From a virus (lineage: Duplodnaviria; Heunggongvirae; Uroviricota; Caudoviricetes), in the IMG/VR virus record IMGVR_UViG_3300021399_000096: a DNA stretch of 64,000 nucleotides, one strand, 5' to 3'. The notes beneath the pieces are model-generated. The model was not told the origin of the DNA and did not search any database. It saw only the letters and a list, made by a program, of their open reading frames with translations. The position numbers were made by a program, and so were the translations under genes. Below are positions 3,086-57,486 of the stretch, in pieces. Position 1 is the first letter of the stretch. Each line of letters starts with the position of its first letter.

Positions 3086-5020
3086 ATGCAAAACTTTATT
3101 CCAGAAGAAGAAATACGAAGAGATTAGAAAATAGTTGATGATGGTTTTTATAATGAAGCATATTTAAGAGAAACTACTCCAATTGTTATAAAGAGAGAAA
3201 TTGGTCAGAAATATGGTCTTAACCCTAAGCAATGTTCAAAAGCAGAAACAATTGCACATGCAATATTATTATATTTAAGAACAATTAGAAATCAAAAAAC
3301 AATATTTACTTTAGATGATATTCATGATTTTTATAAATTGACTGACAATCTTGGTTCATATGACAAATTAAAACCATTTTTAGAATTAGAATCTAAATCA
3401 TTTATAGAATTTGTATTAAAGCACCAATATGATTATATTTTATCTAAATGTCCTGGAATTAAACCATACACATTAGATAATATAGATAAAATTACAATTA
3501 GCCGAGATCTCACTAATGGTTCTAGCAATGTTCGATTTTAGTTAGAACGATATAAAGCTATTAAAAAATATTATGATGAAACTTATGGAATAAAATAGAA
3601 TATAGCTAAAGAAACAAATAAATCTAAATATGATTTAGAAGTTTTATTTTCAGAAGAAACTTATGAAATTAGAGAATAGCTTGAAGAGATACTTGAAGAT
3701 TTTATAAATATGTGTTATGACACTTATGTATATTAGTCTCCTACACATATGAAAATATTACAATTATCTAAAAAATATAGAGAATTGCGTCGTGAAAAAA
3801 ATCCATATTACCATCCAAACCATATTCCAGATGAAGAAGAACAAAGATATATTAAATATAGTAATGCTTTATATCCTGTAACAGTTTTATATAATCATTT
3901 TGAGGATATTAATAAAAAAGAATAGAGAATAGAATACTCTATTAAATATTTTAATAAACAATTTAATGATTTAATTAATAAGAAAATTATTAGAACTTTA
4001 TTAGATAAGAATGTAAATATAGATGATATTAATATAAGTGAATTAAAGAAAGCTGATTTTGGATATTATTTTATTATTAATTATAGAAACGGAAAATTAT
4101 ATGCAAATTTTTTAATTTAGCCAGAGAGTTTAGATGTTTCAGATATGGATGAATACGTTAGAACAGCACATCATTTATTTCCAGAACATATTCATGGAGA
4201 TGCAATTAACTACGTGATGAAAGTAACAGTTAGACCTCTAAATAAAAGTTTAAATGAAGGTTTTGATTTTAATTAGATAAACTTAGCATTAGATGATTTT
4301 GATGATGAAGAACAAGTTCAACATGTAAAATCTAAACAAGTCTAGAATAGAGATTATACTAAAGAATATTTAGATTTGATGAATGCTGTTGTTGATTTAG
4401 GGCTTCCATCAGGTACTTTATGGTGCAAATATAATCTCGGTGTTAATCCAAATAAATTAAAATCTGCCAAAAAATGGTATGGTGATTTTTACGCATGGGG
4501 AGAAACAGAACCTAATAAATTAAAATATACATGGGATACATACACATTAGGAAATGAACAATTTGATTTATTTAAATATATGCGAGATAATTTTTATTCA
4601 AAATCTGGAAAAGCTGATAAATTATTAGCATTATTACCAGAAGATGATGCAGCTTATTAGAATATGCATATTGGCAATTATAAATTTCATATACCAACTA
4701 AAGAATAGTTTGAAGAACTAATATCTAATACAACTCATGAATATATTAAAAACTATAATGGGATTAATAAATTAAATGGGATGGCATTTATCAGTAAAAA
4801 TGGAAATACATTATTTTTACCGGGTAGTGGTATGATTGAGGAAAAATATTATGATAACCAATGCGGTTATTATTGGACATCGACTCTTGATGAAATTTCA
4901 TGTCATATGGCATTTAGATATTGGTTTAACCAAAATAGCATTTTTTATAGTTAGCGAAGAGACTATGAAGATCCAAGATATTATGGGTTTAATATCCGTC
5001 CGGTAATAAATTTAAGATAA
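3086..5020 (+). CDS. Large recoded protein of about 644 aa with about 12 in-frame TAG codons. It has a unique N-terminal region and a C-terminal FISUMP/DUF1566-like domain.
   Basis: A single frame is open from the ATG at 3086 to the TAA at 5018, apart from the TAGs. The motifs LGLPSGTLWCKYNLG, YGDFYAWGETE, YYWTSTL and GFNIRPV match the Fibrobacter-succinogenes-major-paralogous (DUF1566) domain. The ORF track shows only fragments 3338-3541 and 4376-4660. Confidence 0.65.
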
Positions 5021-5024: not shown

Positions 5025-5798
5025 ATGAAAAAATATAAACAAATATTAGAAGCAATTAATAGAGGCATCTAGTTAGCACTAGATGATTTTGATGATGAAG
5101 AACCTATTATAAAAAATATTAAATCTAAACAAGTATAGAATAGAGACTATACTAAGGAATATTTAGATTTAATGAAAGAAGTTGTTGATTTAGGTTTGCC
5201 ATCAGGAACTTTATGGTGTAAATATAATCTTGGGTGTGATTGGAGGTTTTTAAATAAAGATCCTTATTATACTACATATTTAGATTGGTATGGTGATTAC
5301 TTTGCTTGGGGTGAAACAGAATTAGGGACAAAGCCAGAATATTCATGGGAAACATATAAATTTGGAAAAGAATTAACTAAATATAATAATAAAGATAATT
5401 TAAATACATTACTATCTGAAGATGATGCTGCGTATTAGAATAGTAATTTAAAGTTTTGCATACCAACACCTGAATAGTTTAATGAATTAATAAAAAATAC
5501 AATAAATAAACCAGTTGAAAAATATAGAAATGTATATTATTTAGATGGCTGGTTATTTATAGGGAAAAATGGTAATGAATTATTTTTTCCAGCATGTAAA
5601 AAATGTGGAGAAAAAGATGTAAATGAATATCCTACAAATGGAAATTATTGGACTAATACAGTTATTAATTCTAAAATTAATAATATGCAATATGGCATGA
5701 CATTAAATTTTAATACTAATAAATTAAAACCTGAAATTTTTTGTGCTTAGTGCGCTCGTTACAAAGGGCTTCCAATTCGTCCAGTAATAAATTTGTAA
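5025..5798 (+). CDS. Tandem paralog of the C-terminal half of the preceding gene: a FISUMP/DUF1566-like domain protein with 5 in-frame TAG codons.
   Basis: A single frame is open from the ATG at 5025 to the TAA at 5796. It carries LGLPSGTLWCKYNLG, GDYFAWGETE and GLPIRPVINL. Nucleotides 5087-5240 are a near-duplicate of 4293-4450. Confidence 0.65.
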
Positions 5799-10100: not shown

Positions 10101-10478
10101 ATTAAGGATCAAGGTTCTATCATGATTTATGGTAATCAAACAGCTTATCAGGCAATGAAGTCAGACTTTAATAAACTTCATGTTCGTGAAAATCTTAACA
10201 CTGCTGAAATTGAATGTGAGAAAGTTCTTAAGAAATATAACTTTAAATACAATACTCCTGCAGTTCGTGCAAATATTGTTCAACAGCTTACTCCAGTTCT
10301 TTCTGCAATGCAAATTTCTGGAGCATTAGTTAAATATGAAATTATTTGTGATGAAACTAATAACACTCCAGATGTTATTGAAGCAGATGCATGTGTTGTA
10401 GAAATCAACTTGTGGATGAATCACGGAATGGAGAAAATTATTCAAAAGTTCACACTTCAACGTTTATCGGATCAATAA
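7170..10478 (+). CDS. Contractile tail sheath protein, T4 gp18-like, about 1102 aa, with large insertions and two in-frame TAG codons at 7734-7736 and 9381-9383.
   Basis: Three ORF-track pieces (7170-7736, 7773-9383, 9417-10478) lie in one frame and are separated only by TAG. No ATG or RBS follows the TAGs. The C-terminus YEIICDETNNTPDVIEADACVVEINLW aligns with gp18 YRVVCDTTNNTPSVIDRNEFVATFYIQ. Confidence 0.75.
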
Positions 10479-10597
10479 TTCTGAAAAACATAATAAAGAA
10501 AAGAGAATCAAAGAAATTTGGTTCTCTTTTTATTTTATTAAAATTAAACTAAAATTAAAAATAAAGGAACCAAATTAAATGATTCCTTTTATTTTAA

Positions 10598-11044
10598 TTA
10601 AATATCAATATTTATTAGTGTAGAATTAATACCATATTCTTCAAGTGTTGTAGTCCAATCACATTCTCTCCATTCATATGGAAATGTATACCAGCCTTTA
10701 TTTGCTACATATAAATTTAATTCATAATATTCACTAATTAATTTTTTTAATGAAGGAATAATACCGCATGGTTTATCATCACCATAATAATTACGTGTCA
10801 TAAAACAACTGGGGTGTTCTTGATGAATAATTTCTCCATTTTTAATAACATAAAGGTATGCTGCATCACATGATAAATGATCACTATACACAAAATATAT
10901 TCCATCTCCATTTTCAATAAGTTGTTTTTTAATATCATTTAATGAATCTCTTAATGAAGTTGTCTCATTCAATGCTTTCTTAACTTCTTTAGCCACTGAT
11001 GCCATAATGCTTTCATATAAAGCTTTTTTGCTATCTTTTTTCAT
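10598..11044 (-). CDS. Leader-family paralog: a small protein with a conserved N-terminal motif ending in LNE.
   Basis: The N-terminus MKKDSKKALYESIMASVAKEVKKALNE is shared with the genes at 13234, 13666 and 52695. The ORF is intact and ends in TAA. Confidence 0.55.
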   Translation of the reverse strand: MKKDSKKALYESIMASVAKEVKKALNETTSLRDSLNDIKKQLIENGDGIYFVYSDHLSCDAAYLYVIKNGEIIHQEHPSCFMTRNYYGDDKPCGIIPSLKKLISEYYELNLYVANKGWYTFPYEWRECDWTTTLEEYGINSTLINIDI

Positions 11045-11144
11045 ATATTTAATTATGTTTTTTATTTATACAATATATTTATTTAGATTAAACCATTCCA
11101 AATTTTTGTATATAATTTATAATATAAAAATGTTTTATTAAATA

Positions 11145-12266
11145 ATGGAAACAAAACAAATAGATATTAAAGCATCACATATTTTAATGATTTCTGATAT
11201 TCATTTTGGCACTCATGTTAATTCAGAAGAGTGGCAAGAGAATATGAAAAACTATTTCTATGACTTTTTTATTCCAAAGGTTAAAGAACTTAAAACCTCA
11301 TTAAAAGATGGTGAGAGAATGATTCTGGTGAACCTTGGAGATACTTTTAATGATCGCAGAGCCACTGATATTAATGTTTATAATTTAGCAATTGATGTAT
11401 TTGAAGATATTGCTAAAGAAATAGAAACTTATATTATAAATGGAAATCATGATTTAGCAAAGAAAACTAATACAGGAAATACTTCACTTCGTGCAATTCA
11501 ATATATAAATAATGTTCATCTTATTACTGAACCAACTATATTGAATATAAATTATGAGGGTGTAAAACATACTAAAATAATTGCAATTCCATATTTAGGC
11601 GATCATTCACAAGAAACAAATTGTTTAATAGAAAACAATAAAGCCAAATATGCATTTATGCATACAGATTTAGCAAAAATGAGATTTGATAACGGAATGC
11701 TTATTACAGAAGGTGTAAATACAGATGCATTTAACGGAGTTGTTTATTCCGGACATATTCATAAACGGCAAGAAACAAAGAAATGTATATATGTTGGTTC
11801 ACCATATCATATGGATAAAAAAGATATTGGAAATCAAAAAGGATTATATTTGCTTAATCTTAAAACTAATAAACATGAATTTATTGAAAATCATTATAGC
11901 CCAATATATCACAGTTTATTAATGGAAAAATATGTTGAAATGTCTATTGGAGAACGACAAGAATTCCTAAACAACAATTATAATTATATTATCATTAAAG
12001 AAGAAAACATTCCAGAATATAAAAAGAAATTTGATATTTATAATTTAGGAATTGGAACAACTGCAAAATTTGTTAAACCTGTTATCAGCAAACAAACACT
12101 AAATATTAATGTTGATGAAAATATAGAATATAAAGAAAAAACGACAGCTGAACTAATAAACGAATCTATTAATGATTTAGATGTCAGTGAAGAATTCAAA
12201 TTGCAATTAATAAAAACAAGTGATCAGTATTTGAAAGATGCAGAAGCAGAAATTGCGAATGATTAA
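11145..12266 (+). CDS. Mre11/SbcD-like recombination nuclease, T4 gp47-like.
   Basis: The metallophosphoesterase motifs DIHFG, GDTFND, GNHD and GHIH are present. Confidence 0.75.
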   Translation: METKQIDIKASHILMISDIHFGTHVNSEEWQENMKNYFYDFFIPKVKELKTSLKDGERMILVNLGDTFNDRRATDINVYNLAIDVFEDIAKEIETYIINGNHDLAKKTNTGNTSLRAIQYINNVHLITEPTILNINYEGVKHTKIIAIPYLGDHSQETNCLIENNKAKYAFMHTDLAKMRFDNGMLITEGVNTDAFNGVVYSGHIHKRQETKKCIYVGSPYHMDKKDIGNQKGLYLLNLKTNKHEFIENHYSPIYHSLLMEKYVEMSIGERQEFLNNNYNYIIIKEENIPEYKKKFDIYNLGIGTTAKFVKPVISKQTLNINVDENIEYKEKTTAELINESINDLDVSEEFKLQLIKTSDQYLKDAEAEIAND

Positions 12267-12304
12267 AAATAAAGGAACCTTTGAATTGAGGCTCCTTTTA
12301 ATTA

Positions 12305-13234
12305 TTATCTAAATGTTGTTTTCTTTCCGGAGTTAACTATAGATTCAATATAAGATTTATCATCTCTAGTTAATCTGTTAGTTGGAGATTCTGTAAAGCC
12401 CATATGCCATCCAAGCCATTGAACCAAATCTGCATACTGCTATCCATTATCATAATGTATATAATATTTAAAAGAATAGCGTTTTTCTTCAATATTTACA
12501 CTAATACCATGGTTTCTTAACCATTTGATATGATTTTCTGCTGCAGCCATTGGAGAAGCAAATTCTCCAGCATCATAATTATAAGGAGAATATACAAAAT
12601 CTGTTATAAAATCTCCAGATTTTTCTTCAACAGAAGTAATCTCTTTAAATTCACAGGTTCTTCTCAAAATCATATTAACATCCATTTGAATTTGAGCTTC
12701 AGAACGGGTTTCCCATTTCCCAGATTTATCAATTTCTGCACGAATTGCTTCTGGTGTTGCTGGAATTTCTCCATTATTAATTTTTTGAATTATTTCAAAT
12801 TTAACTCTCTGACGTGGTGTTTTAATTTTATCAATTTGAATATATTGTTTCATTATATTCTATTTGTTCTCATTAACAGAATCATTAACAGAATTCTTAT
12901 TAACTTTTTGAATTGAAATTCTAGGAGATTGCCCAAGAGAATTATCAATATCTAAAACATTTGAATTAACTAATAAAGAAATAACTTTAATAACTTCTTC
13001 ATGAGTTTTGCATGTTACTCTGATAGAGCCAGAACCATAATTGTCAAATGCTGGTAATTTAGAAGATAATGCATCTAATGTTTTCTTATTCATTCCGTCA
13101 CAACGAACTAAATAAATTTCGCCTGAAACTTCTTGGCTAACTGGAGCAATATCATCAACTTCATTCAAAGAACGTTTAACTTCTTTGGCAACTTGCTCCA
13201 TTATTCTATTATATAAATCAGAATTTTTTTGCAT
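12305..13234 (-). CDS. Leader-family paralog of about 309 aa with two in-frame TAG codons at 12860-12862 and 12440-12442.
   Basis: Track ORFs 12860-13234 and 12440-12853 lie in one frame and are separated by TAG plus two codons. The frame continues to the TAA at 12302-12304. The N-terminus MQKNSDLYNRIMEQVAKEVKRSLNEV matches the family leader. Confidence 0.55.
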
Positions 13235-13330
13235 AATTATAATATATACTTTATTTCTTTTATTATTTATTTAAGAAATAATTAAACAAAATAAAAAGAG
13301 AACCAAATTTCTTCGATTCTCTTTTTAATA

Positions 13331-13666
13331 TTAAAGATCATCTTTATCTATTGTTCTATAGCATAATGGATATAAAATAGCATTAATTGCAAAAATTGGA
13401 GATACATGATGATCCAAATATACTCCATCAGTAATAGCATTCAACATAACTTGTAACTATCTTTCTGGTAGATTTTCTTTTATTATTTTTGCAATATTTA
13501 ATCCAATTTCATTAATTTCATATCTTGAATCTGGAGATTTATCAATTTTCTATCCACGTTCATTTGTATAAACTTCTGGATATTCACCTTCATTCAATGC
13601 CTTTTTAACTTCTTTAGCAACAGAAGCCATAATGCTTTCATATAAAGCTTTTTTGTCTCTTTTCAT
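13331..13666 (-). CDS. Leader-family paralog of 111 aa with two in-frame TAG codons.
   Basis: Manual translation gives MKRDKKALYESIMASVAKEVKKALNEGEYPEV..., a frame that is open only if TAG is read as sense. The gene was missed by the ORF track. Confidence 0.5.
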
Positions 13667-13756
13667 ATTCTATTATATTTTTTTTATACAATATATTTAT
13701 TTAAGAAACAATTCATTATTTTTATATATAATAATTAAGTAAAATTATAATTAGAT

Positions 13757-15427
13757 ATGAAATTTAAATCAATTGAGTGGAAAAATATTAGATCATTTGG
13801 GGAAGAAATCCAAAAAGTTGAATTTATTGATGGAGAATTAGTCTTATTAAAAGGAATTTCTGGTTCTGGAAAATCTACAATTCTCTCTCTTCCATGTATA
13901 GCATTATTTGGAAAAACTCCTGGATTGACAAAATCTGCAATTCATAATCGAATTAATAAACACGGCTGGATTAAAGCAGTTATTGAAAAGGGAGGGCATG
14001 AATATATTATTGAACGCTCATTCACACCCAATGATTTGCAGGTTTTCCGAGATGGTGTCAATATTAATTCATATGGCACTTCATCTGCACAAGATTATAT
14101 TGATAAAGAAATTGCAGATATTCCAATTAAAGCATTTTCTAATATGATTTCTATTTCTATGAAGAAATTCAAATCATTTTTAACTATGTCTCCGGCAGAT
14201 CGAAAAGAAATTATTGATAGAGTTTTCAATCTTGAAGTTGTCAATATTGCATTTGAAAAAATTAAAAAAGATGCTCGTGAAATTGGAAATATGATTAATT
14301 CCAATAATAATTCATTGTATCAATTAACTCAAACATTAAATAATGCTAATATTGAATTATCAAAACTTCAACAGTCTTCACAAACTGAAGAGAATAAAGA
14401 AATTATACGAACAAATACTGAAAAGATTTCAAAAGATAATGAGAATATTAAAAAATTGACAGATGCGTTGTCAACTTATACTCAAAAACAAACTGAAGCA
14501 TTAGGAAGCATTACAGAAATCAAGCAAAAACAATATGAGAATAATTACAATATTCAAGTTATTCAACAAAAAATAGATTTGTATTCTCAAGACAAATGTC
14601 CAACATGTGGAATGTCATTCTCTACAGAATCTGTTAAAGATTTGAAAACCAAACTTCTCAATCTTAAAATAGAAAAAGATAATATAACTACAGAACTTAA
14701 TGGACAATTAGAAAAAGCAAATGCAGATTATAATGCAATAACCGAATATATTGGAAAATTAAATACTGCAATATATCAATTAAATTCTGATATTCAACAA
14801 TTAACTGCACAAAATAATGCATTGAATGAACAACTTAAGAATAATGCAGAGTTCCAGGGAATTAATAATATTATCAATAATACAACAAAACAAATTGAAG
14901 ATATTAACAAACAACTTTCTGAAGATTCTGCAAAATTAAAAGAACTTCAAACATTGGCTATTGTTTATTCTATTGATGGAGTCAAACAAAAAGTTATTGT
15001 AAATTATTTGCCAATTTTGAATAAAGAAATTGAAGATAATTTGGATTTGGTTAATTTTCCGTATCAATTGGAAATTGACACTAAATTTGAACCACACCTT
15101 AAAGAACTTGGGGTTGAATTGACTCCAGAATCATTGTCAGACGGTGAAGAGACACGAGTTGATTTAATAGTTCTTTGTAGTTTATTTAAATTATTGAAGA
15201 GAAGATTTCCATCAATTAATATATTATCTATTGATGAAGTATTATCTTCACTTGACAATGAAACATCCGGATTAGTTCTTGATTTCTTGAGACATTTTGC
15301 ACAAGAAAATAATCTAAGTTGTTTTATTGTTTCACACACAGATTTGTATCTTGATAATTTTAATAAAATCATTAGTGTAACAAAAGACGGTTTTTCAAAA
15401 ATAGAAATAACAAAAGCAATTAACTAA
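13757..15427 (+). CDS. Rad50/SbcC-like ATPase, T4 gp46-like.
   Basis: Walker A GISGSGKST at the N-terminus, a long coiled-coil middle with a CPTCG zinc hook, and a C-terminal signature/Walker B LSIDEVLSSLD. Confidence 0.75.
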   Translation: MKFKSIEWKNIRSFGEEIQKVEFIDGELVLLKGISGSGKSTILSLPCIALFGKTPGLTKSAIHNRINKHGWIKAVIEKGGHEYIIERSFTPNDLQVFRDGVNINSYGTSSAQDYIDKEIADIPIKAFSNMISISMKKFKSFLTMSPADRKEIIDRVFNLEVVNIAFEKIKKDAREIGNMINSNNNSLYQLTQTLNNANIELSKLQQSSQTEENKEIIRTNTEKISKDNENIKKLTDALSTYTQKQTEALGSITEIKQKQYENNYNIQVIQQKIDLYSQDKCPTCGMSFSTESVKDLKTKLLNLKIEKDNITTELNGQLEKANADYNAITEYIGKLNTAIYQLNSDIQQLTAQNNALNEQLKNNAEFQGINNIINNTTKQIEDINKQLSEDSAKLKELQTLAIVYSIDGVKQKVIVNYLPILNKEIEDNLDLVNFPYQLEIDTKFEPHLKELGVELTPESLSDGEETRVDLIVLCSLFKLLKRRFPSINILSIDEVLSSLDNETSGLVLDFLRHFAQENNLSCFIVSHTDLYLDNFNKIISVTKDGFSKIEITKAIN

Positions 15428-16208: not shown

Positions 16209-16676
16209 ATGAAAAAAGTATCAATCGAAATAGCTAAATTATTGCAAAAAGTTGGTTTTCACGAAAAAACCAATAGTTTCTATTTAGCAAAAACATCAAA
16301 TGCAGAATATGAATTATATGAAGAAGGCGAATATAGAGACTGGAATGAAGAATGTGAAAATGCAATCTATAATACAGTAATGTCTGCACCAACTTTATCA
16401 CAAATATGTGATTGGTTGAGAGAAAATAAAAATATGAAAATATGGGTTGAACCGCATAGGTTTATTGAAAGAAAAGAAATAGAAACTACTGAATATTTTT
16501 TTCCACTTTGGCATGGAATATGGTGGGTAAGTGAAAATGAAATATATAAATGTTCATGTCAAACATATAATGATTCAATGGAATCTATTGTTCTATTTGC
16601 ACTTAAAAAATTAGCAGAAGATAATAATGAAACTAAACAAAATATAGAGGGAACAAATTTGGAACAAATACAATAA
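16209..16676 (+). CDS. Hypothetical protein.
   Basis: Intact ORF in the operon. Confidence 0.4.
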   Translation: MKKVSIEIAKLLQKVGFHEKTNSFYLAKTSNAEYELYEEGEYRDWNEECENAIYNTVMSAPTLSQICDWLRENKNMKIWVEPHRFIERKEIETTEYFFPLWHGIWWVSENEIYKCSCQTYNDSMESIVLFALKKLAEDNNETKQNIEGTNLEQIQ

Positions 16677-17013
16677 ACACTGCGCATATTGTGGATGCGA
16701 ATTGGATTATAAAGATATGCAGGTAGATCACATTAAACCTGTATTTCATAATTGGTCTGAAAAAGATAAAGAAAAATTATTACCAAAAGATTATACAGGT
16801 GATGATTCTATAGAAAATCTAAATCCATCATGCAGAGCATGTAATTTTAGAAAAGGCTCCAATGATATAGAAGGATTTAGAGAAGAATTACAACATGGAT
16901 TGATATGTTGCTAGCGAAATTTTACATATCGAATGATGATTAAGTATGGTTTAGTAGAAGAACATCCGCAAGAAATAAAATTTTATTTTGAGAAATATAA
17001 TGGAAACAATTGA
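16627..17013 (+). CDS. HNH endonuclease. It probably extends through two in-frame TAGs at 16645 and 16912; the minimal core is 16702-16914.
   Basis: HCAYCGC...DHIKP...NLNPSCRACNFRKG gives the HNH motif with flanking CxxC zinc knuckles. The upstream Cys pair lies outside track ORF 16702-16914, so the real gene must start earlier, across a TAG. Confidence 0.5.
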
Positions 17014-17170
17014 TTTAGATTATTTTAAACAAAAAATATATGAGATTTCTGGAGTTCCAAAATCTAGTTTAGAAAAAATAGACGAAACATATAATGAAGT
17101 TTTACTTGAACATCGTTTTTGGAAGTTTATTGAATATTTAATTAAAACAAAAAGTAATAAAAACATATAA
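17000..17170 (+). CDS. Small hypothetical protein.
   Basis: ATG-initiated ORF between the HNH gene and the polymerase gene. Confidence 0.3.
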   Translation: METIDLDYFKQKIYEISGVPKSSLEKIDETYNEVLLEHRFWKFIEYLIKTKSNKNI

Positions 17171-17198
17171 TTATAAAATAAAAAATTAATAAAATTAC

Positions 17199-18746
17199 AT
17201 GGCAGTTTATAAGAGCAAATTTATAGAAATTGATCCAGATACTTGTTCTAAAGAAGAACTTTATAATGCAATTAAAGAGTGTAAGGATCTTTCTGGATAT
17301 TATGAAACCAAACAGCTTGCAGTTAAAACATTTATTAATTCAGTATATGGAGCTTGCGCTAGTAAGTATTTCGTTGGGCATAATACGGCAGTTGCAGAAT
17401 CAATTACACTTCAAGGACAGGATTTGAATCACTATTCAGAAAACTGTGTCAATAAGTATTTTAGAGGAATTTTTCAATCACAAGAGGAATATAATAGAGT
17501 TATTTATGTTCCTTTATTCGAGTGGATGGAAAAATATGATATTGAAACCACTGATGAATTTTATGCTAAAACACCGGATAAACAATGGGTTTTAGTTAAA
17601 TTGCCATTAAGCAAAAATGAAATTAAAGATCAAGATAATTTGTCAAAAGAAATGAAGGCTTTACTTAAAAAAGTTTCGGTTAAAACCACTTTTGGCGAGT
17701 ATCTTGGAGCACCATATGAAAAAATAAAAGAATTTGAAATCAATAAAGGAAAGATTACTCAAAATGAACCACTTAATTCTTTGGCATTAAAAGCTAAGAA
17801 TCCATTAGATTCTAAAGAAAACCCATTTGCATATATGGGTAAAACAACATATTTGGAAGATGATCCAACATGTAGTTGTACGGTGAATGGGGATACTGAC
17901 TCCATTTATGTCGAGTTTGGGAGGGTTACTACGTTTTTAGGAATACATGATTTTAATAAGGCTACTCGTTTTGTTGTTGATATGTGGAATTATGGAATCG
18001 GACCATATATGGATAAAAAATATGACGAATATGCACAAAAATATAATTGTGATGAAAATATAGAAAATCTTGAACTTGAAAAAATTGCAGATACCGCAAT
18101 ATTAATAGCAAAAAAACATTATGCAATGTCTGAATGTTGGAAAGAACCAAATATATATTTAAATCCAGGTGAAGAAGTTGCATATAAAGGTCTTGAATTA
18201 GTTCAAGGATCTACACCTCCATTTGCAAGAAAATGCCAAGATGAATTTATGAAATATGTTATGAATTGGTATATAAATCATAATGAATCTCCGGAATTTG
18301 ATGAAATTTATTCATTACTCAAAAAATTCAAAGATGATTTTATTAAACAAAACCCGGAAGATATTTGTAAAAGTGTATCAATTTCTGATTATGACAAATT
18401 TATTCTTGATGATAAAAATCAATTAGTGATTGCTGATAAATGTCCTATTCATGTTAGAGCAGCTGGAATTTATAATTATATTTTGAATAATCCAAAGAAT
18501 AAAAAATATAAAATGAAATATAATTCAATAAAGACCCGTGATAAAGTTAAATTTTATAAAACAACAGATCCAAATTATCCTGTCTTTGGTTTTATTCCGG
18601 GCAAATATTCTTTAGAGTTTGCACTTCCAATGGATTATAATCAACAATTTGAAGATTTGGTTTTGAAACCATTAAATCGTGTTATTGAGATTTTAGGTTA
18701 TCAACCATTTACATCAGATTTATGTTATGTTTCATCATTATTTTAA
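17199..18746 (+). CDS. Family B DNA polymerase, C-terminal half (motif B, motif C, thumb). This is a separate gene of a split polymerase.
   Basis: KTFINSVYGACAS is motif B (KxxxNSxYG). VNGDTDSIYV is motif C (YGDTDS). Confidence 0.8.
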   Translation: MAVYKSKFIEIDPDTCSKEELYNAIKECKDLSGYYETKQLAVKTFINSVYGACASKYFVGHNTAVAESITLQGQDLNHYSENCVNKYFRGIFQSQEEYNRVIYVPLFEWMEKYDIETTDEFYAKTPDKQWVLVKLPLSKNEIKDQDNLSKEMKALLKKVSVKTTFGEYLGAPYEKIKEFEINKGKITQNEPLNSLALKAKNPLDSKENPFAYMGKTTYLEDDPTCSCTVNGDTDSIYVEFGRVTTFLGIHDFNKATRFVVDMWNYGIGPYMDKKYDEYAQKYNCDENIENLELEKIADTAILIAKKHYAMSECWKEPNIYLNPGEEVAYKGLELVQGSTPPFARKCQDEFMKYVMNWYINHNESPEFDEIYSLLKKFKDDFIKQNPEDICKSVSISDYDKFILDDKNQLVIADKCPIHVRAAGIYNYILNNPKNKKYKMKYNSIKTRDKVKFYKTTDPNYPVFGFIPGKYSLEFALPMDYNQQFEDLVLKPLNRVIEILGYQPFTSDLCYVSSLF

Positions 18747-18778
18747 AACAAATAGAAAAAGAAATATAAAAAATATAC

Positions 18779-20308
18779 ATGATAATTAGTAAAGAACAAA
18801 TAGATAGCAATGATTCTAATGGAAATCCAATAAAATTATTGGTTATTTCATATGTCAATAAAGAAGGAAAGATTTCATATTTGAAATGGCAAATTCCAGC
18901 AACAGAAATGTTTGAATGGGTTTATACAAATAGGGCTAATGCAGATAAACCATTTCCAGCATATGATGTGAATACTCGTCAACCTATTATTGATGAAGTT
19001 ACTGGACAACCAAAAATAGTACAATGGAAATCTTATGACAATAAATGGGTTAGACGAAATCCAACTATTAAAAATCTTTCAGAAGGAAGATTGAATGAAA
19101 TTATTAATAGTTGGGGGAAAATTGCAGATCCTTTATTTGAAGCTAATACTCCAATAACATGGTTTTGTGATATTGAGGTAGATGTTTCTCCAGAAGGATT
19201 TCCGGATCCAGATTCTGCATCTATGCCAATTAATACAATAGCAATAACAAAATTTCCAAAAACTATTGTTTTTGGACGTAAGCATTTATCTGAAAAAGAA
19301 ATAAATGGTATTCAAGAAAATCTTAGAAATTATTCAGATTTAACAAAAGATTATGAATTTGAATATAGATATTATGAAACTGAATATCAAATGATTGAAG
19401 CCTTTATAGAATTTATAAAGGATATTCCTGCTATAACTGGATGGAACTTTTTAGGATATGACTGGAAATATATTAAAAATCGTTGTGAAAATATTGGAAT
19501 AACGGATTTAATTAAAATTTGTCCAACACAAGCATATACACGATTTAAATTAAATAGAAAAAATGTAATAGATGTTCAAGTTCCATTGCATAAAATCATA
19601 TATGACTATATGTTAGTTTATAGACAATGGGACAGATCAGTAGAAATTAAAGAAAGTGATACATTGGACTGGGTTTCTAACAAAGTTCTTGGAATTAAGA
19701 AAGTTGAACATGAATGGGGGTTTGAGGAATTTTATAGAGATCATTATATGGAATATGTTTTCTATAATGCTGTTGATACTATATTGGTTGAAAAAATCGA
19801 TGAGAAACTTAAAACCGCACAAATTTGGTATATGTTGGCAAGTGAACTTCGTGTATCATTAAATGATGCTTTTTCAACTATTTTGCCAACTGAAGTTGTT
19901 ATGACTAACTTTATTTATCCACAATATAAAGTGGTTCCAAAAAAGATTAATAATAACGATGATGTTGATACAGATTATGAAGGAGCTTTTGTTTGGCCAA
20001 CACAACCTGGAGTTTACAAATATATTGGTGGGCTAGATTTCGCTTCACTTTATCCTTCAACGATGATCCAATTTCAAATATCGCCAGAATCATTTTTATT
20101 TAAAGATCCAACATATGTTCCAAAAGATAATGAAATCAAAACAATTTCTGGGGCAGTTTATCAAAAAAGAGCTGATGCTATTCTTCCAGCTATTCTTAGA
20201 CACTATTTTGCTAAACGTAAAGCAGCTAAGGCAGATCGAAAAAGTGTAGATGTAGATATGGAAGTATTAATTAAAAAATATGAAGAACGATTTGGAAAAT
20301 TTGAATAA
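18779..20308 (+). CDS. Family B DNA polymerase, N-terminal half (3'-5' exonuclease domain plus motif A). It is encoded downstream of the C-terminal half.
   Basis: FCDIEVD is the Exo I motif. YIGGLDFASLYPSTMIQ is motif A (DxxSLYPS). The C-terminus ILPAILRHYFAKRK aligns with the T4 gp43 segment that immediately precedes motif B. Confidence 0.8.
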   Translation: MIISKEQIDSNDSNGNPIKLLVISYVNKEGKISYLKWQIPATEMFEWVYTNRANADKPFPAYDVNTRQPIIDEVTGQPKIVQWKSYDNKWVRRNPTIKNLSEGRLNEIINSWGKIADPLFEANTPITWFCDIEVDVSPEGFPDPDSASMPINTIAITKFPKTIVFGRKHLSEKEINGIQENLRNYSDLTKDYEFEYRYYETEYQMIEAFIEFIKDIPAITGWNFLGYDWKYIKNRCENIGITDLIKICPTQAYTRFKLNRKNVIDVQVPLHKIIYDYMLVYRQWDRSVEIKESDTLDWVSNKVLGIKKVEHEWGFEEFYRDHYMEYVFYNAVDTILVEKIDEKLKTAQIWYMLASELRVSLNDAFSTILPTEVVMTNFIYPQYKVVPKKINNNDDVDTDYEGAFVWPTQPGVYKYIGGLDFASLYPSTMIQFQISPESFLFKDPTYVPKDNEIKTISGAVYQKRADAILPAILRHYFAKRKAAKADRKSVDVDMEVLIKKYEERFGKFE

Positions 20309-23172: not shown

Positions 23173-25080
23173 ATGAAAGTAAACAATCAAAAAGCTACTG
23201 CTAAAAATGCAGAGCAAATGATCAATGAAGCTTGGGCTCCAATGATTACTCGTACAACTGGTGTTAAGGATCCAGAAAAGCTTGCTTGGATGAGTCAACT
23301 TGCTCATAATACAGCTAAATCCTTAAATGAATCTGCTCCTGTAATGGGTGCAAACGACTTCTCTGAATTTGGCGGTGCTTATGCTCCATATAATAACCTT
23401 TATAACACTCTTGGTGTTGGTAACGTAGTTGCTCCATCACGTGTTGCTATGTCTGGTTCTGCATAGGCAGATGATCAAATTCTTGGTTCTGGCGATAAGT
23501 TCCCTGCACTTCTTCCATTAGCAATGAAAGTTGCTGCTAAAACTATTGGTTTTGAACTTGTAAATACTACTCCTCTTGCAGGTCCTAGCGGTGTTCTTCC
23601 TTATATGGACTATGTATACAGTGGTAGCAAACAACCATATGGTGCAACTCCTGCATATGATCCAAAATCTGCAAATCCTGCATATGCTCATAGTGCGCGT
23701 GTTCCAGAAGGTGGTGTAGGCCAAAATCCTGCATTTGCTCTTTATGGTCTTCCTCATGCGTTCAAAGCTACTCTTCTTCCTGCTAACAGCAATGCAGATC
23801 CAATGGTTAAATATAAACATGATCTTGAAGTAGCAGGTTTGAAAGCTGGTGTAGCATTTAGAATTGGTGGTGGACAATCTGGCGCTGGTGCTCTTGAAGT
23901 TGAATTCATTGGTTGGAGCCGTATTGATGGATGCCCAATGTTCAAAGTTGTTAATGGAGCTAAATCTCTTGGTGAATATTTCATGGAAGGTACAGTTGAA
24001 GCCGTTAGTGAAATTGCTACATTGAAACTTCAAGGTCCTAAATTAGTATCTATGTTGGAAGATTCACTTCTTGGTTTCGCTGGTGCTGGTGAAGTTGATA
24101 AAGATGCTTGGGCTGGTACATATCAAGATGGTACTGTTCTTTATGAACCAATGAGTCGTGCAACAGGTGAATTAACTCCTGCCCGTCAAATCTCATTACA
24201 ACTCTTCACAAAGAACATCGCAGTTGGTACAATCCAAGTTGCTTGTGCTGTTACACAAGAACAAGTTACTGACCTTCAAAAACAATGGGGTATTGATGTA
24301 TTGAAGATCGTTGAGAACGCTGGCGTAAACGAACTTTCTCAAACTATCAACCGTCACATCACATCTCGTTTGTTTGCTCTTGGTTGGAAGAACCATGCTA
24401 AGATGGTAGAAGTTGAAGGTCTTGAAGCTTGCTTGAATATGACTTTCCAACCTTGGGATAAAAATGATAATGGTACAGTAGATAATGGAGAAATCCAAAC
24501 TCGTGCATTTGCAATTCCTGAAGGACAATATCTTGAAACTGAACAACGTTATGAATCTCAAAAATTAGTTGAACTTCCTTTAATGCCTATGGGTGTTATT
24601 GAAGGCGCTAACTTCGAGAACCGTGACACTCTTATCAAGAGAATCTTTACAAATATCTTAGCTGCTTCTAACTGGATCCAACAACGTGGTCGTTACGGTG
24701 CTGCTACATTCGTTGTAACTAACATCCGTGTTGCTACATTGTTACAATCTGATGCGCACTATAGCTTCTCACCAATTGAGAATACTGTTAAACAAACTGC
24801 TGGTCAACTTTACCCAATCGGTACTGTATGCGGTTTAACTGTTTACGTTGATCCATTGATGAAGGCTAATGATACTCGTGTATTAGTTGGACGTAAAGGT
24901 GCTAAAGATGAACCAGGTGTTCACTTCTGCCCATACGTAATGGCTGAGGTTGTACGTATCATCGCTGAAGGTACAATGGCTCCAAAACTTATGATTAAAT
25001 CTCGTTACGCACTTGTAGATGCAGGTTTTTATCCAGAAACACAATATATTACATTCTTCGTAGATTGTCGTGGTCTTTAA
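23173..25080 (+). CDS. Major capsid protein, T4 gp23-like, about 635 aa, with one in-frame TAG at 23464-23466.
   Basis: Track ORFs 23173-23466 and 23524-25080 are in the same frame and joined by TAG. FPALLPLAMKVAAKTIGFELVNTTPLAGPSGVL aligns with the gp23 region around IPNLIAFDICGVQPMNSPTGQVFAL. AATFVVTNIRVATLL aligns with the gp23 segment GNFIIASRNVVNVLA. The gene has strong codon bias and GC enrichment. A 270-nt AT-rich leader lies upstream. Confidence 0.75.
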
Positions 25081-25267: not shown

Positions 25268-27424
25268 ATGACTATACTAGAAGAAACATTAGAAGAATTA
25301 AAAGCAGGTAAAATTTCGCAACGCCAATTTATTGGATATTGTAAATCAGATAATAACATTTATGGAGAAATTATAGAAAAAACTAAATTCCTAGATCAAT
25401 ATAATCCAGATATTCTTGAACGTCTTTATTATATAATTAATAATATTAATGAAGTAGTTAAATGTAAATATTGTAATAATAAAGCAATATGGACAGGACG
25501 TATAAATAATGGGTATAAAGATATTTGTAATTCTAAAGAATGTCGTACAAAACAATTAGCAGATGTTCATAAAGGAAAAACAATTATATCAAATAATAGA
25601 GATAATGATTTTATTATTAAACAATCAGCAATAGAAGAAGTTAATGATGATATTATAAAAGACATATTGAAATATGATAAATTTTTAGATTTAATTACAA
25701 ATGAAAATATTTTAAAATATCTCGATAATAGATTTAGTGATAGCTCATCTAGATTAGAATCTCTTCAACGTATTAGATTTGGAATAGAAGAAAAACCAAA
25801 ATGTCCAACATGTGGAAAACCTGTAGTGTGGGTAGGTAAAAAATCTAAAATGTTTACAACTTATTGTTGTAATGAATGCCGAGCACAAAATAAAGAAACT
25901 CATAAGAAAATGAAACAAACCCAACTAGAAAATTGGGGAAATGAATGTTGTTATCAATCAGAAAAATATAAACAAAAAATGCGTGAGAAATATGGTGTTG
26001 ATTATTATTGGCAACGTTCAGATATAAAAGAAAAAAGAAAAGTAGGTTTAATAGAACATTATGGCACAACAAAATTATATCAAGTAGAAGAAATTAGAAA
26101 TAAAATAATTGCTACTAATAGAGAAAAATTTGGATATGATAATCCAATGCAAAATCCAGAAATTAAACAGAAAACTTATGAGGCTATCAAAAAATCAATG
26201 AGATTTGGAACATCTAATGCTGAAGATAATGTATATAATTGGTTAATTGAGCTTGGATATAATGTAGAAAGATTTGTAAGATCTGAAAAATTCCCATTTA
26301 ATGTGGATTTTTATTTAAAAGAATATGATTTATATATTGAATATCAAGGTTCTCAATATCATCATGGATATTCTTTTCTCGGAACAAAAGATGATTTTAT
26401 TGAATTAGAAAATTTAAAGCAAAAGAATGAAAAATCTATATTAGAAAGTGGTAAAACTAAATCACAATATCAATCTATTATAGATACTTGGTCAATATAT
26501 GATGTAAATAAAAGAAATTATGCAAAAACCCATAATATAAAATTTTTGGAAATTTATAAATGTAATTCAAAAGAAGATTTACAATACCAATTAAATTTTT
26601 ATTTATGTTGTTTATATAATGAAAATATATTAAATTATAATAAAGAATTATTACAGAATGAATTTAATTTTTATAAAAAATTAAAAACTGAAAATTTATC
26701 AAATTCTGTAGGAAAATATCATATGATTATTAAGCAGTTCCAATGCAATAATTTCTTTAAACATGAAATAGAATTATTTGTTAATGATCCAATCATACGT
26801 AGAAAACTTATTCAAAACCGTGTAAAATATCTTAATAAAGAAGAAATACAACTTACACCAGAAGAAATTTTAACCGGCTTTAAAAAATCTGGGATTTATT
26901 ATGGTTATTCTCATTTTAATCCAAAATGGACAAATTGGTTTATTAACAAATATAATATTAAAACTATATATGATCCTTGTGGTGGATGGGGGCATCACTT
27001 ATTAGGAATGCTTTCATGTAATAAAATAATATATAATGATTTTTCACAATCAACCGTTGAAGGAGTTCAACAAATAAAAGATTATTTTAATATAGATAAC
27101 TTAGAAGTTCATTATGGAGATGGAACTGAATATATTCCAGAAGAGGTTGATGGATGGTTTATGTGTCCGCCTTATTATAATTTAGAACATTATGAATGCG
27201 GTGATTTTAAGTCATTAGAAGAATATAAAATATTCTTAAATAAAATTATTAAACTATGGCAAAATAGTTCATCTAGAGTCTTTGGAGTTATATTGAGAGA
27301 AGATTTAATAGATTATATAGATATTAAACCAAATGAAATACGTGATATGAAAATTCATAAAACATATTTAAATGGTGGAAAGAAAAACTTAGATGAAAAA
27401 TTTTATATTTTCAAAAAATAGTGA
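25268..27424 (+). CDS. Large multidomain protein: N-terminal Cys4 zinc ribbons, a central PD-(D/E)xK-like nuclease-fold segment, and a C-terminal SAM-dependent methyltransferase-like region.
   Basis: CKYCNN...CNSKEC and CPTCG...CCNECR are the zinc ribbons. VDFYLKEYDLYIEYQGSQYH is the nuclease-like segment. YDPCGGWGHHLL resembles MTase motif I. FMCPPYY resembles MTase motif IV, (D/N/S)PPY-like. The gene ends in tandem TAG-TGA. Confidence 0.4.
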
Positions 27425-41236: not shown

Positions 41237-42333
41237 AAATGTTAAATTCAAATATTAATGTTAAAGAACTTCGAAAGCGATTTGAATATTTAAAAAATTG
41301 TATCCAATTTGAAGATAAAAAGAATCAAGAAAATGAGCTGAATATGCGAATGCACGATCCAGCTTTTTGGAATGATGCAAAAATGGCAGAAAAAATTTCG
41401 AAAGATTGGAAAAATTTATCTAAATTGATATGTGATATTAATTTAACTGATGATGACATTACATATTTAGAATTATTATCTGATGAAGAATTATCTCAAG
41501 ACTGGGCAAAAACATTATATAATACATGTATAGAAACAATTTCTAAATATGAAATGCAAACCATGCTAAATAAGGACGAGGATAAGATGCCGGCAGTTTT
41601 AAAAATTGTGGCTGGAGCCGGTGGAACTGAAGCACAAGATTGGGCTGAAATGTTAATGCGGATGTATCTATCTTATTTTGCAAATCATAATTTTACAGGA
41701 GAAATAACAAACTATCAAAAAGGTGATACGGCAGGAATTAAAACTGTTTCATTTAATGTATATGGAGATTTTGCATATGGGTATCTTAAAAGCGAAACTG
41801 GAATACACCGATTAGTAAGAGTAAGTCCATATAATGCACAAGGAAAACGTATGACAAGTTTTGCAAGTGTATTTGTGTGTCCATTGGTAGATGACTCCAT
41901 TGAAGTTAATATTAATCCTGCAAATATTACAATGGATACATTTAGATCTTCTGGCGCAGGCGGACAGAATGTTAATAAAGTTGAATCTGGAGTAAGACTT
42001 CATTATAAGTTTATTAATCTATTAACAGGACAGGAAGATGAATTAGTAGCAGAAAGTACAGAATCTAGAGATCAACCTAAAAACAGAGAAATTGCAATGC
42101 AACATTTGCGCAGTCAATTGTATGAATTAGAACTTGAAAAACGACGTCAAATTCAAGCAGAAATAGAAAATAAAAAGATGCCAATTGGCTGGGGTGCACA
42201 AATTAGAAGTTATGTTTTTGATGATAAACGTGTAAAAGATCATAGAACAAATTATCAGACATCTGATGTAAGTTCAGTAATGAATGGGCATATTGATGAA
42301 TTTATTAAAGCATATTTAATGGAAACTAATTAA
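41227..42333 (+). CDS. prfB: Peptide chain release factor 2. The gene is uninterrupted, with no programmed frameshift site.
   Basis: The GGQ motif is in SSGAGGQNVNKVESGVRL. The RF2-type tripeptide region LVRVSPYNAQGKRMTSFASVFV carries an SPY variant of SPF. AGAGGTEAQDWAEMLMRMY and GWGAQIRSYVFDD are also present. Confidence 0.85.
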   Translation: MGMKMLNSNINVKELRKRFEYLKNCIQFEDKKNQENELNMRMHDPAFWNDAKMAEKISKDWKNLSKLICDINLTDDDITYLELLSDEELSQDWAKTLYNTCIETISKYEMQTMLNKDEDKMPAVLKIVAGAGGTEAQDWAEMLMRMYLSYFANHNFTGEITNYQKGDTAGIKTVSFNVYGDFAYGYLKSETGIHRLVRVSPYNAQGKRMTSFASVFVCPLVDDSIEVNINPANITMDTFRSSGAGGQNVNKVESGVRLHYKFINLLTGQEDELVAESTESRDQPKNREIAMQHLRSQLYELELEKRRQIQAEIENKKMPIGWGAQIRSYVFDDKRVKDHRTNYQTSDVSSVMNGHIDEFIKAYLMETN

Positions 42334-42390
42334 GCTTCTATTTTTTAATTTAAGAAAAATGTATTAAATTTGCATCGAAATTAAAAATAA
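42334..42390 (+). promoter_or_regulatory. Conserved promoter-like element, copy 4 of 6.
   Basis: agcttctattttttaatttaagaaaaatgtattaaatttgcatcgaaattaaaaataa lies upstream of the ATG at 42400. Confidence 0.5.
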
Positions 42391-42399
42391 AGTAATTTT

Positions 42400-51502: not shown

Positions 51503-51536
51503 AAGGTTGAAAAATTAATTCCAACCTTTGTTTTTT
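51503..51536. terminator. Bidirectional terminator hairpin between convergent genes.
   Basis: Stem aaggttg / caacctt flanked by an A-run upstream and a T-run downstream. Confidence 0.55.
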
Positions 51537-52695
51537 AATCTTCTTCATCAAAACACCATTTTAATGTATGAACATCAGATGTTGCATTAAATAGCCGTTT
51601 ATAATCATCAAAATCATATAATGTAATTTTGCTTTTATAAAAACGTCCAACAAAGTTTCCAGCTTTTTGTCTATATACATAATATAATTCTACTTCAGAA
51701 TTATCAAAAAGCTCAAAAGTTACTTTAGCCTAATCTATAGTTCCCTGAGGAACCATTTTATATCTATATCTTTGAGTTCTATATTCTTTTACTGGTGCAG
51801 AATCAATTAATTCAATTTTATAAGAATTAATTTTATTATTCTAATGTATATATTTTTTAAGATTTTCTGGGAATATTTCAGAATGTGCGGCTTCATTAAA
51901 TCCACCCTTTCCGTCATATTCTTGAAGATCATCTATTAATTCTTTTATATCTTCAGGAATATTATATGTTGCATATTTTCTTCTATATGCTTCAAGCTGT
52001 GCATCATTTAATATATTCAACTCATATATTCTATCTTTAAATGCTTTAACTGCTTCTTTCCAACCTAATGTATTTGCAATAATATATCTGGCAACTATTT
52101 TATTATTATCTTTGCATGAATTTGCAACTCTTTCTGGATTTGAATGTCTATTTTTATAATCAATCATCTTCATCCAGTCTCTTACAGTTGGGGCATATTC
52201 ATCAGTATTAGTTGCATCAACTTCCATATCAAATTTTCTTTCGGCATCTGCTAGTGCAAGTTGTAAATCATCATCCTTTTTAAAATTATATTCAACTTGT
52301 ATTTGCTGTATTGTTTGAATTTTAGAAGATATAATTTTAAATTCTTTATGTTTTTTAATATATTCTTGAATTTTCTATAAATCTTCTCTAATATTATAAT
52401 AACCAAACTAAGGAGAGATTGTTAGTCTTATAGGTTGATTTGAATATACCGAACCAATATAAAGAGTCAATTTGCCATAAGGTTCATATGTAAAACTATA
52501 AAATCTATTTGTTAAATTTGGAATAGATGTAAATTTTTTATAAATCCATTCCTGTATAGTCATTTTTAAAAATTGTTTAAGATCTGCTATATCTATATTA
52601 TGTTCAGGCGTGGCAGTTCTATACTCATTAAGAGCGGTTTTTACTTGCTTAGCAACTGACCTCATTATGTTTTCATATAATATATTTTTATTCAT
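51535..52695 (-). CDS. Leader-family paralog of about 386 aa with four in-frame TAG codons at 52408, 52375, 51841 and 51730.
   Basis: Track ORFs 52408-52695 and 51841-52227 lie in one frame. The whole interval 51538-52695 has no TAA or TGA in that frame. The N-terminus MNKNILYENIMRSVAKQVKTALNEY matches the family leader. The C-terminus reads ...HTLKWCFDEED. Confidence 0.55.
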
Positions 52696-52793
52696 AATTT
52701 TAATAATAATTTTTCAATATATTTATTAAAAAATGAAACAATTTTATTATTACTTATAAAATATTTAAACACAAAAAATAATTTAAAGAAAAT

Positions 52794-55246: not shown

Positions 55247-55259
55247 AAAATATTAATAT

Positions 55260-56369: not shown

Positions 56370-56375
56370 TTAAAA

Positions 56376-56404
56376 AGAACCATTAAAACTAATGGTTCTT
56401 TTTG
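56376..56404 (+). terminator. Rho-independent terminator.
   Basis: Stem agaaccatt / aatggttct followed by a T-run. Confidence 0.65.
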
Positions 56405-56436
56405 CTATAAAATATACAAAATTAATTAAATTAGTA

Positions 56437-56967
56437 ATGACAAATTTATTTGTTATAGAAGGTCAAGATAGAGCCGGTAAAGATACATTACTTCATGATT
56501 TAGAAAAAATAGGATTAACAATATTTAGTCCAGATACAAGTTATCTTCCAAATTATCATAATGCTGATGAATTTAGAGCTGCATTAAAATTATATTTGGA
56601 AAAACAAACTAATGATATGATTAATCTAAATGTAAAAGATTTATATATTGCAAGGTATCAATTGAGTGAATATGTTTATGCTGAATTATTTAATCGACCA
56701 AATTTGTTTGAAGATTATATTAATGGTATATTAAAGGATCATTTTAAAATCAAAAACATTATTTTATTATGGGATACATATCAAGATTATTTGGATAGAT
56801 TAAAAATGATTAATGATGATTATATTGAATATACTGAAGAAGATTTTAATAAAATTAAAAATTTATATTTAAAATATAAACAACCTAATGATGTTGTTAT
56901 TTATGTAAAAACAAATACAACTCGTGAAGATTTAATAACAAAAGCAAAGTAGATAATATGCATGTAA
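56437..56967 (+). CDS. Deoxynucleoside monophosphate kinase, T4 gp1-like / thymidylate kinase-like P-loop kinase. It reads through a TAG at 56950-56952.
   Basis: VIEGQDRAGKDTL resembles T4 gp1 LSGVKRSGKDT and Tmk EGxDGAGKTT. The start is moved to the ATG after the terminator. Confidence 0.5.
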
Positions 56968-57470: not shown

Positions 57471-57486
57471 AATAATTAATTAGAAC

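Follow-up and report, generated by a model that had tools for sequence, protein, structure and literature searches.

What is the function of a short N-terminal segment that is shared by proteins otherwise unrelated to each other? The question is raised by a 64,000-nucleotide stretch of Caudoviricetes DNA (IMG/VR record IMGVR_UViG_3300021399_000096, hereafter the window), in which four genes, named A to D, start with a similar leader of 24-27 residues that ends in Leu-Asn-Glu (LNE) and is followed by a variable cargo. On sequence patterns and by analogy, the leader is probably a capsid-targeting propeptide of the T4 type, removed by the prohead protease. The four genes are the following (aa, amino acids; TAG codons are in frame and read as sense).

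10598-11044, minus strand: gene A, 148 aa, no TAG; leader residues 1-27 (10964-11044), cargo of 121 aa.
12305-13234, minus strand: gene B, 309 aa, two TAGs; leader residues 1-25 (13160-13234), cargo of 284 aa.
13331-13666, minus strand: gene C, 111 aa, two TAGs; leader residues 1-26 (13589-13666), cargo of 85 aa.
51535-52695, minus strand: gene D, 386 aa, four TAGs; leader residues 1-24 (52624-52695), cargo of 362 aa.

The consensus of the four leaders is (K/N)xxLYExIMxSVAK(E/Q)VKxxLNE, with 13 invariant columns. When the window was scanned in six frames for the 19-residue core, allowing up to 9 substitutions, exactly four copies were found (with 0, 0, 4 and 6 substitutions). They lie on the minus strand without exception, none more than 8 residues from the start of an open reading frame (ORF). 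These are the same four genes to which an earlier note on this DNA had ascribed a common leader of about 25 residues followed by unrelated C-terminal domains. The cargos are indeed mutually dissimilar (best BLASTP E = 0.13), and A-D resemble each other only in residues 1 to about 27, as is typical of a T4-type tag, a short N-terminal segment common to otherwise unrelated proteins. Searches of Pfam and PHROGs with A-D returned nothing above noise. The note was also right that the four genes run against nearly all others, the remaining 69 called ORFs being on the plus strand, and that three of them contain recoded TAGs. It had further described the interval 10598-13666 as a cluster of minus-strand paralogs. 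Three leader genes do lie there, but the interval also includes a plus-strand gp47/SbcD-like gene, and B and C sit antisense between this gene and the gp46-like gene. Antisense orientation as a trait of the whole family was rejected: it holds for A-D but for only about half of the related loci.

Lak-type megaphages rank with the largest phages known and occur frequently in the guts of humans and animals; they have yet to be grown, and the majority of their genes carry no annotation. The capsid protein of the window shares 62% identity with that of Prevotella Lak megaphages and 29% with that of Tenacibaculum phage PTm1, a cultured relative, and several genes of the window read TAG as sense; from these sequence features the window is therefore assigned to a Lak-related, TAG-recoded, T4-like megaphage of Bacteroidota. 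The major capsid protein is of the gp23 type and matches the T4-like major head protein family phrog_138 (5e-31), and other PHROG matches are a gp32-like single-strand-binding protein, a primase, the tail sheath and DNA polymerase. Two plus-strand genes, 11145-12266 and 13757-15427, were read by eye as gp47/SbcD-like and gp46/SbcC-like and are conserved in related genomes. Together with the gp21-family protease of a relative (see below), these matches agree with the earlier description of the replication and structural genes as T4-like. A sequence search with the capsid protein against solved structures gave no match. An origin from the 'Jug' gut jumbo phages was considered and rejected, as these use the standard code.

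TAG recoding in the window is real. Reading TAG as sense raises the coding coverage from 85.5% to 90.7% and merges fragments into long genes, including the gene at 3086-5020 with 12 in-frame TAGs, that at 5025-5798 with five and the 1102-residue tail sheath with two. No suppressor tRNA was found in the 64-kb window. The TAGs that fall within leaders occupy positions of Gln in other leaders (LYEqIM versus LYEQIM). Gene B encodes one protein rather than three, because 22 full-length homologues of 300-324 aa span both of its TAG positions, and the closest of them (89% identical) has Gln at the first. The orthologues of gene D were retrieved as N-terminal fragments (P0001, P0003, P0004 and P0006).

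A profile built from the four window leaders was searched against 5.8 billion proteins and matched 167 of them at E ≤ 10, the best 120 all having E < 1.2e-6 and the strongest E = 3e-17. The matches are all metagenomic, and most end early at a TAG owing to gene calling with the standard code. The leader, which the earlier note had advised seeking in related phages, stands at the N-terminus of at least 153 distinct metagenomic proteins; as many as five copies were recognised on single IMG/VR contigs of 200-416 kb, the related loci that were fetched hold 47 leader genes, and the complete genome of the megaphage Lak-B5 (MK250024.1) has about 12. Two other ideas, a signal for secretion or for a lipoprotein and a similarity due to chance or to low complexity in an AT-rich genome, are effectively refuted. 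The Lys-rich start of the segment is like that of many signal peptides, and the G+C content is about 27% overall (23-33% across the window). However, the segment is charged throughout and has neither a hydrophobic core nor a lipobox, and both the placement of all four six-frame matches at ORF starts and the strength of the profile matches argue against chance.

Over 153 non-redundant junctions, the consensus of the leader is MK(K/R)DNKKALYESIM(T/A)SVAKEVKKALNE. Each position through the Glu carries 2-4.3 bits of information; the residue that follows (Asn, Ser, Asp, Gly or Tyr) carries 1.2 bits, and the positions beyond it about 0.5 bits. The regular expression that anchors the junctions fixes some leader positions, including L-x-E, and leaves P2 free; Asn is found at P2 in 148 of the 153 junctions. 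The same hydrophobic-x-Glu ending, which is the cleavage consensus of the T4 prohead protease gp21, emerged from the profile search, in which no residue was forced. The match between the leader end and the gp21 consensus (L/I)-x-E, first remarked on in the four window genes, is thus retained across the family.

The head proteins of the clade point to the same tripeptide. T4 gp21 cleaves after hydrophobic-x-Glu and takes off the N-terminal segment of gp23 (PMC9026906). A comparable site is predicted in the capsid protein of the window (arrows denote the predicted cleavage).

23323-23331, plus strand: predicted maturation site of the major capsid protein, L51-N52-E53 (...HNTAKSLNE↓SAPV), in gene 23173-25080; (L/V)NE is kept in the clade.

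(L/V)NE ends the N-terminal segment in 12 distinct Lak-clade capsid proteins, with differing flanking residues: Lak-B5 has ...HNTAKLNE↓DAFV, other members have AMALNE↓A, GFGSLNE↓A or NNMVNE↓D at the equivalent position, and a more distant clade has LYE↓D. The alignment of this predicted site to the T4 gp23 cleavage site is approximate.

Neither a protease nor a portal gene was found in the window or beside the capsid gene of Lak-B5; both are located elsewhere in the complete Lak-B5 genome. The Lak-B5 protease gene (MK250024.1 493317-491575, minus strand, or about 41575-43317 of locus L044) encodes a protein that matches Peptidase_S77 (Pfam family of T4 gp21, 9.6e-15) and shares 44% identity with the 'prohead core scaffolding protein and protease' of PTm1 and 31% with T4 gp21. 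In it, the protease is fused to a very long, extremely acidic scaffold-like region rich in Asp, Glu and Ser. In this protease-scaffold protein, [LIV]NE occurs six times versus 0.99 expected (about 6-fold, P = 6e-4) and [LIV]NE[SNDG] four times versus 0.28 expected (P = 2e-4), the candidate sites including LTLNE↓S, RVNE↓S, YLNE↓S and PVNE↓S. The first of these sits 19 residues from the N-terminus of the protease and suggests self-processing, as has been proposed for T4 gp21 (PMC9026906). Both places in which the earlier note had recommended looking for LxE processing sites, capsid and scaffold, thus contain candidates. The conservation of (L/V)NE in capsid proteins and the excess of [LIV]NE in the protease-scaffold protein suggest that the leader ends in a tripeptide used for head maturation, and we infer that LNE is a prohead-protease cleavage site common to the leaders and the capsid protein. 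A second candidate site is present in gene B.

12869-12877, minus strand: codons V120-N121-E122 of gene B, candidate protease site between two domains, within the invariant motif NDSVNE.

NDSVNE is invariant in 20 of 20 aligned members of the B family and is followed by an indel-rich linker. An AlphaFold2 model was obtained for P0129, the homologue 89% identical to B. The leader forms a helix (residues 3-23), followed by a stretch with a predicted local distance difference test score (pLDDT) below 50 (23-38) and a domain (39-112); a second low-confidence stretch (113-131, pLDDT < 50), which holds NDSVNE, precedes a second domain (132-309). Since this second invariant VNE lies in a low-confidence linker, the protein of gene B may be cut twice. 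The model presents the leader of the B family as a detachable module, with a disordered linker after its helix. P0126, which is homologous to cargo A, begins directly at the cargo, and no leader remnant is found upstream of it. These two observations and the sharp drop in conservation after LNE favour a detachable signal, as the earlier note had supposed, over a structured domain.

The leader genes also share their upstream region. All four are preceded, about 30-40 nucleotides (nt) upstream of the start codon, by the motif (C/T)T(T/A)AATAAATA(T/A), which is one base away from TATAAATA, the late promoter of T4. Terminator-like sites are numerous in the region 10400-13800, where four were found versus 0.7 expected.

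11071-11087, minus strand: late-type promoter motif of gene A, TCTAAATAAATATATTG, with the AATAAATA core at 11076-11083.
13264-13271, minus strand: AATAAATA promoter core upstream of gene B (motif scan).
13689-13705, minus strand: late-type promoter motif of gene C, CTTAAATAAATATATTG (motif scan).
52715-52731, minus strand: late-type promoter motif of gene D, TTTTAATAAATATATTG (motif scan).
10563-10589, minus strand: intrinsic terminator hairpin just past the stop codon of gene A (terminator scan).
12271-12298, minus strand: intrinsic terminator past gene B (terminator scan).
13292-13327, minus strand: intrinsic terminator past gene C (terminator scan).

In the window, AATAAATA lies upstream of ten genes, eight of which, including the sheath gene, contain an in-frame TAG (Fisher p = 8e-6). 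In Lak-B5, [AGT]ATAAATA was present upstream of all 13 genes checked, namely 10 clear leader genes, two more divergent leader-like genes (197032 and 494384) and the protease gene. Within a stricter window of 12-60 nt, the motif precedes 24% of the Lak-B5 ORFs of at least 80 aa and is associated with TAG-bearing genes (odds ratio 6.7, p = 3e-18). Of the 34 leader genes in the IMG/VR loci, 25 have it. According to Devoto et al. (PMC6784885), it is chiefly the regions coding for structural proteins that use TAG. As the leader genes share both the motif and the use of TAG with the sheath and protease genes, they are predicted, with good computational support, to be expressed late, together with the head genes. 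Judged from these signals, each leader gene is a self-contained late cassette of promoter, leader, variable cargo and terminator; like a moron, it has its own promoter and terminator and is inserted between conserved genes.

Two further regulatory features were observed. Near-identical hairpins (AAAGAGAATC[A/G]AAGAAATTTGGTTCTCTTTTT) end the sheath gene (10498-10531, plus strand) and gene C (13292-13327, minus strand). A second type of promoter is represented by five copies of about 50 nt (AACTTCTATTTTTTAATTTGAA...TATTAATTTTGCATCGTAATTAAAAATAA), located some 70 nt upstream of the plus-strand genes at 27523, 32561, 37843, 42400 and 45961. These copies match the Bacteroidota consensus TTTG / TAnnTTTG, all precede TAG-free genes and are probably early promoters.

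Five genomes with gp46, gp47 and sheath 85-99% identical to those of the window were compared at the leader slots. Between gp46 and the orthologue of B, they contain zero, one or two leader cassettes with differing cargo and a near-identical promoter and leader, and the slot of A is variable as well. On this comparison, cargo is exchanged rapidly behind a constant promoter and leader. Leader remnants followed by a few codons to a stop were detected in a related locus (L012, 3960-5114) and in Lak-B5 (about 199.5 kb of MK250024.1, locus L037); they resemble cassettes in decay, a sign that leader genes are gained and lost.

Such exchange raises the possibility that the conserved unit is only a cassette for expression or recombination, made up of the late promoter, the 5' untranslated region and the first ~80 coding bases, and that the peptide has no targeting role. 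The joint conservation of the leader with the promoter and upstream region, the swapping of cargo behind this 5' module in near-identical genomes and the A-rich first codons are all in keeping with it. However, the invariant leader residues are encoded by varied synonymous codons (Leu by five, Ser by both serine codon families), and the leaders of A and C, whose 19-residue cores are identical in amino acids, differ by six synonymous and no non-synonymous codons. Selection therefore acts on the peptide itself. Moreover, the conservation spans 19-27 codons and ends exactly at a protease-type motif, and nine of the 34 IMG/VR leader genes keep the leader without the promoter motif. A cassette devoid of a targeting peptide is thus a very improbable explanation.

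The nature of the cargos is best seen in Lak-B5. One leader is fused to a full sigma-70 factor (MK250024.1 193464-194474, minus strand, or 43464-44474 of L037; Sigma70_r2, 1.3e-11, with weaker regions 1.2, 3 and 4). All 15 Lak genomes have this fusion; for sigma homologues from outside Lak, the alignment starts only at about residue 52. Another leader-like protein has a membrane segment and a Phage_lysozyme domain, and the protein encoded directly upstream of the protease gene contains, by eye, an HExxH motif and has no Pfam match. Among 36 cargos from the related loci, Pfam gave only single weak matches (Hexapep, Lcl_C and SprT-like), and the predicted folds are generic only. In the absence of any recognisable family, the role of anti-defence effectors put forward for the cargos in the earlier note is a guess.

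One cargo-type domain also occurs in the window. The two most TAG-rich genes, 3086-5020 and 5025-5798 (both plus strand), share a C-terminal domain (DLGLPSGTLWCKYNLG...YFAWGE) and the segment LALDDFDDEE, and the same DLGLPSGTLWCKYNLG...YFAWGE domain is the cargo of leader proteins in two related loci (L005 and L007). In the 644-aa protein of gene 3086-5020, the shared domain is preceded by PLNKSLNE↓G, another candidate protease site, and this gene carries the promoter motif of the leader genes.

Several observations weigh against a capsid-targeting propeptide. The cargos are mostly acidic, with a pI below 5 in 22 of the 43 tested and above 9 in none, and small, highly basic, DNA-associated cargo of the T4 internal-protein kind was not found among these 43; T4 cargos are basic and do not include a sigma-70 factor or a lysozyme. 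These two Lak-B5 cargos would normally be cytoplasmic or act at the envelope late in infection, and the leader-like lysozyme may be no more than the endolysin. The helix modelled for A does not end at LNE but extends across it (residues 3-44), so that this LNE would be less suitable as a protease substrate than that of B. At 24-27 residues, the leader has more than twice the length of the T4 tag (10-19 residues in T4), and homology between the two is not demonstrable. The protease was identified in the related Lak-B5 and not in the window, and its specificity was deduced from motif enrichment and conservation. Finally, the clade is one without a cultured member.

Some of these observations would fit better if the leader were a removable or permanent pro-sequence, or a docking helix, with a function other than loading of the head interior: it might keep late proteins inactive until cleavage, tether them to a membrane or assembly site, or direct them to another part of the virion. 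In Bacillus sporulation, pro-sigma factors are held inactive until they are cleaved. The leader helix is both amphipathic and basic, the sigma-70 factor and the lysozyme with its membrane segment are proteins for which regulated activation would be reasonable, and acidic cargos are poorly suited to a DNA-filled capsid. This explanation is nevertheless unlikely. The invariant LNE agrees with the site conserved in the capsid protein and with the motif that is overrepresented in the protease-scaffold protein, the substrates of T4 gp21 are proteins built into the prohead core (PMC9026906), and a single tag on dozens of unrelated orphan proteins argues for a common destination rather than protein-specific regulation.

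The earlier proposal of capsid-targeted internal proteins is therefore supported in part: the T4-type head, the protease, the (L/V)NE sites, the promoter and the modularity speak for it, and the acidic cargos, the sigma factor and the lysozyme do not. The note had regarded leader-bearing cytoplasmic enzymes as evidence against its proposal; the latter two proteins are of this kind, but either might be an ejected protein as well.

If the leader is a T4-type capsid-targeting propeptide, its basic amphipathic helix (net charge about +2.5) would attach the protein to the scaffolding core while the prohead assembles. The likely docking partner would be the scaffold part of the protease-scaffold protein, since the leader is basic and this part extremely acidic. 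The gp21-family prohead protease would cut after the invariant Leu-Asn-Glu, the leader would be released and the cargo would remain inside the head, to enter the next host cell along with the DNA. Rapid exchange of cargo behind a constant promoter and leader would then yield a strain-specific set of pre-made proteins. We propose more tentatively, and with some doubt, that one tag loads a strain-specific 'injectome' of at least 12 proteins, including a sigma-70-family factor, a lysozyme and metalloprotease-like proteins, which would provide a set for transcription take-over and counter-defence in Prevotella or other Bacteroidota.

To our knowledge, no phage delivers a sigma factor with its DNA, as the leader would predict for the Lak fusion. 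A capsid-destined tag would also indicate where and when the products of dozens of orphan genes in each genome act, and would point to those with the fastest arms-race turnover as candidates for counter-defence. The T4 capsid-targeting principle would extend to a distant lineage infecting Bacteroidota, by means of another tag; for uncultivated megaphages, it would become possible to read directly from sequence which proteins are ejected, and the leader could be used as a packaging tag for engineering. In the Lak genome literature that was searched, no mention was found of a shared leader, a protease or paralogous N-termini. The principle is known from T4; what appears to be new is the leader tag and its occurrence across Lak-type megaphages, along with how many cargos there are, how they turn over and the presence of the tag on a sigma factor.

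Other features of the window were recorded. A complete seven-step shikimate/chorismate pathway is encoded at 54215-62475 (plus strand), comprising a fusion of DAHP synthase and chorismate mutase, DHQ synthase, shikimate kinase, a fusion of type II dehydroquinase and EPSP synthase, chorismate synthase (3e-79) and shikimate dehydrogenase, with a Peptidase_U32-like gene among them. DNA polymerase is split and its order swapped (16537-20308, plus strand), the C-terminal part (17199-18746) preceding the N-terminal part (18779-20308); the ORF just upstream (16537-17013) is HNH-like by eye. The capsid gene is directly followed by a 718-aa ORF (25268-27424, plus strand) with one TAG and a late-type promoter motif; a region of it resembles a homing endonuclease (phrog_3339, 4e-13). 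In PTm1, too, a homing endonuclease is encoded just past the capsid gene, with one small ORF in between.

Among known systems, the closest is that of the capsid-targeting sequences of the T4 proteins IPI, IPII, IPIII and Alt. All that the T4 internal proteins have in common is a short N-terminal tag, by which they dock to the scaffolding core and which gp21 takes off; the mature portions differ widely (PMC3012670, PMC8442874, PMC9026906). As in T4, the leader is a short N-terminal tag on unrelated, rapidly diversifying proteins that ends in hydrophobic-x-Glu, in a phage with a gp23-type capsid protein and a gp21-family protease (Peptidase_S77); the promoter is close to TATAAATA, and variation is concentrated at the cargo loci. 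The sequence of the T4 tag is MKTYQEFIAE, and the T4 internal proteins are described as highly basic (PMC8442874). Within this tag, residues 4 and 7 (Tyr and Phe) matter for targeting and residues 8 and 10 (Ile and Glu) for processing (PMC9026906). By eye, the invariant Tyr of the leader and the invariant Ile three residues on reproduce the spacing of Tyr4 and Phe7. In this by-eye comparison, homology to MKTYQEFIAE was not established, only the Tyr-x-x-hydrophobic spacing being common to both, and none is claimed because the segment is too short and too different. The leader further differs from the T4 tags in that its predicted cleavage tripeptide is fixed as L-N-E and in the number of tagged genes, about 12 per genome in Lak-B5 versus 4-5 in T4.

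The cargo-loading peptides of encapsulins and the N-terminal modules of polymorphic toxins likewise combine a short conserved targeting module, a flexible linker and interchangeable cargo. Neither is homologous to the leader; the encapsulin tags are usually C-terminal and uncleaved, and the modules of polymorphic toxins are large secretion domains. The giant phages phiKZ, 201phi2-1 and SPN3US (proteases gp175 and gp245) resemble the present system in having giant capsids with many packaged and ejected proteins, and their inner-body proteins are processed after Glu by a diverged gp21-like protease. Their virion RNA polymerase, which is delivered with the DNA, is a precedent for the packaging of transcription proteins. 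In contrast to the leader, their propeptides are long and protein-specific, with the motif (S/A/G)-x-E, and the lineage is that of the chimalliviruses. The cassette organisation, finally, recalls the PeSL promoter-terminator cassettes ('morons') of T4-type phages, reportedly described by Arbiol, Comeau and Krisch in 2010. The leader genes, too, have their own promoter and terminator, often lie antisense within conserved gene blocks and differ in content between near-identical genomes. PeSL cassettes use early promoters and have no common coding leader, whereas the promoter of the leader genes is of the late type and their constant module extends into the protein.

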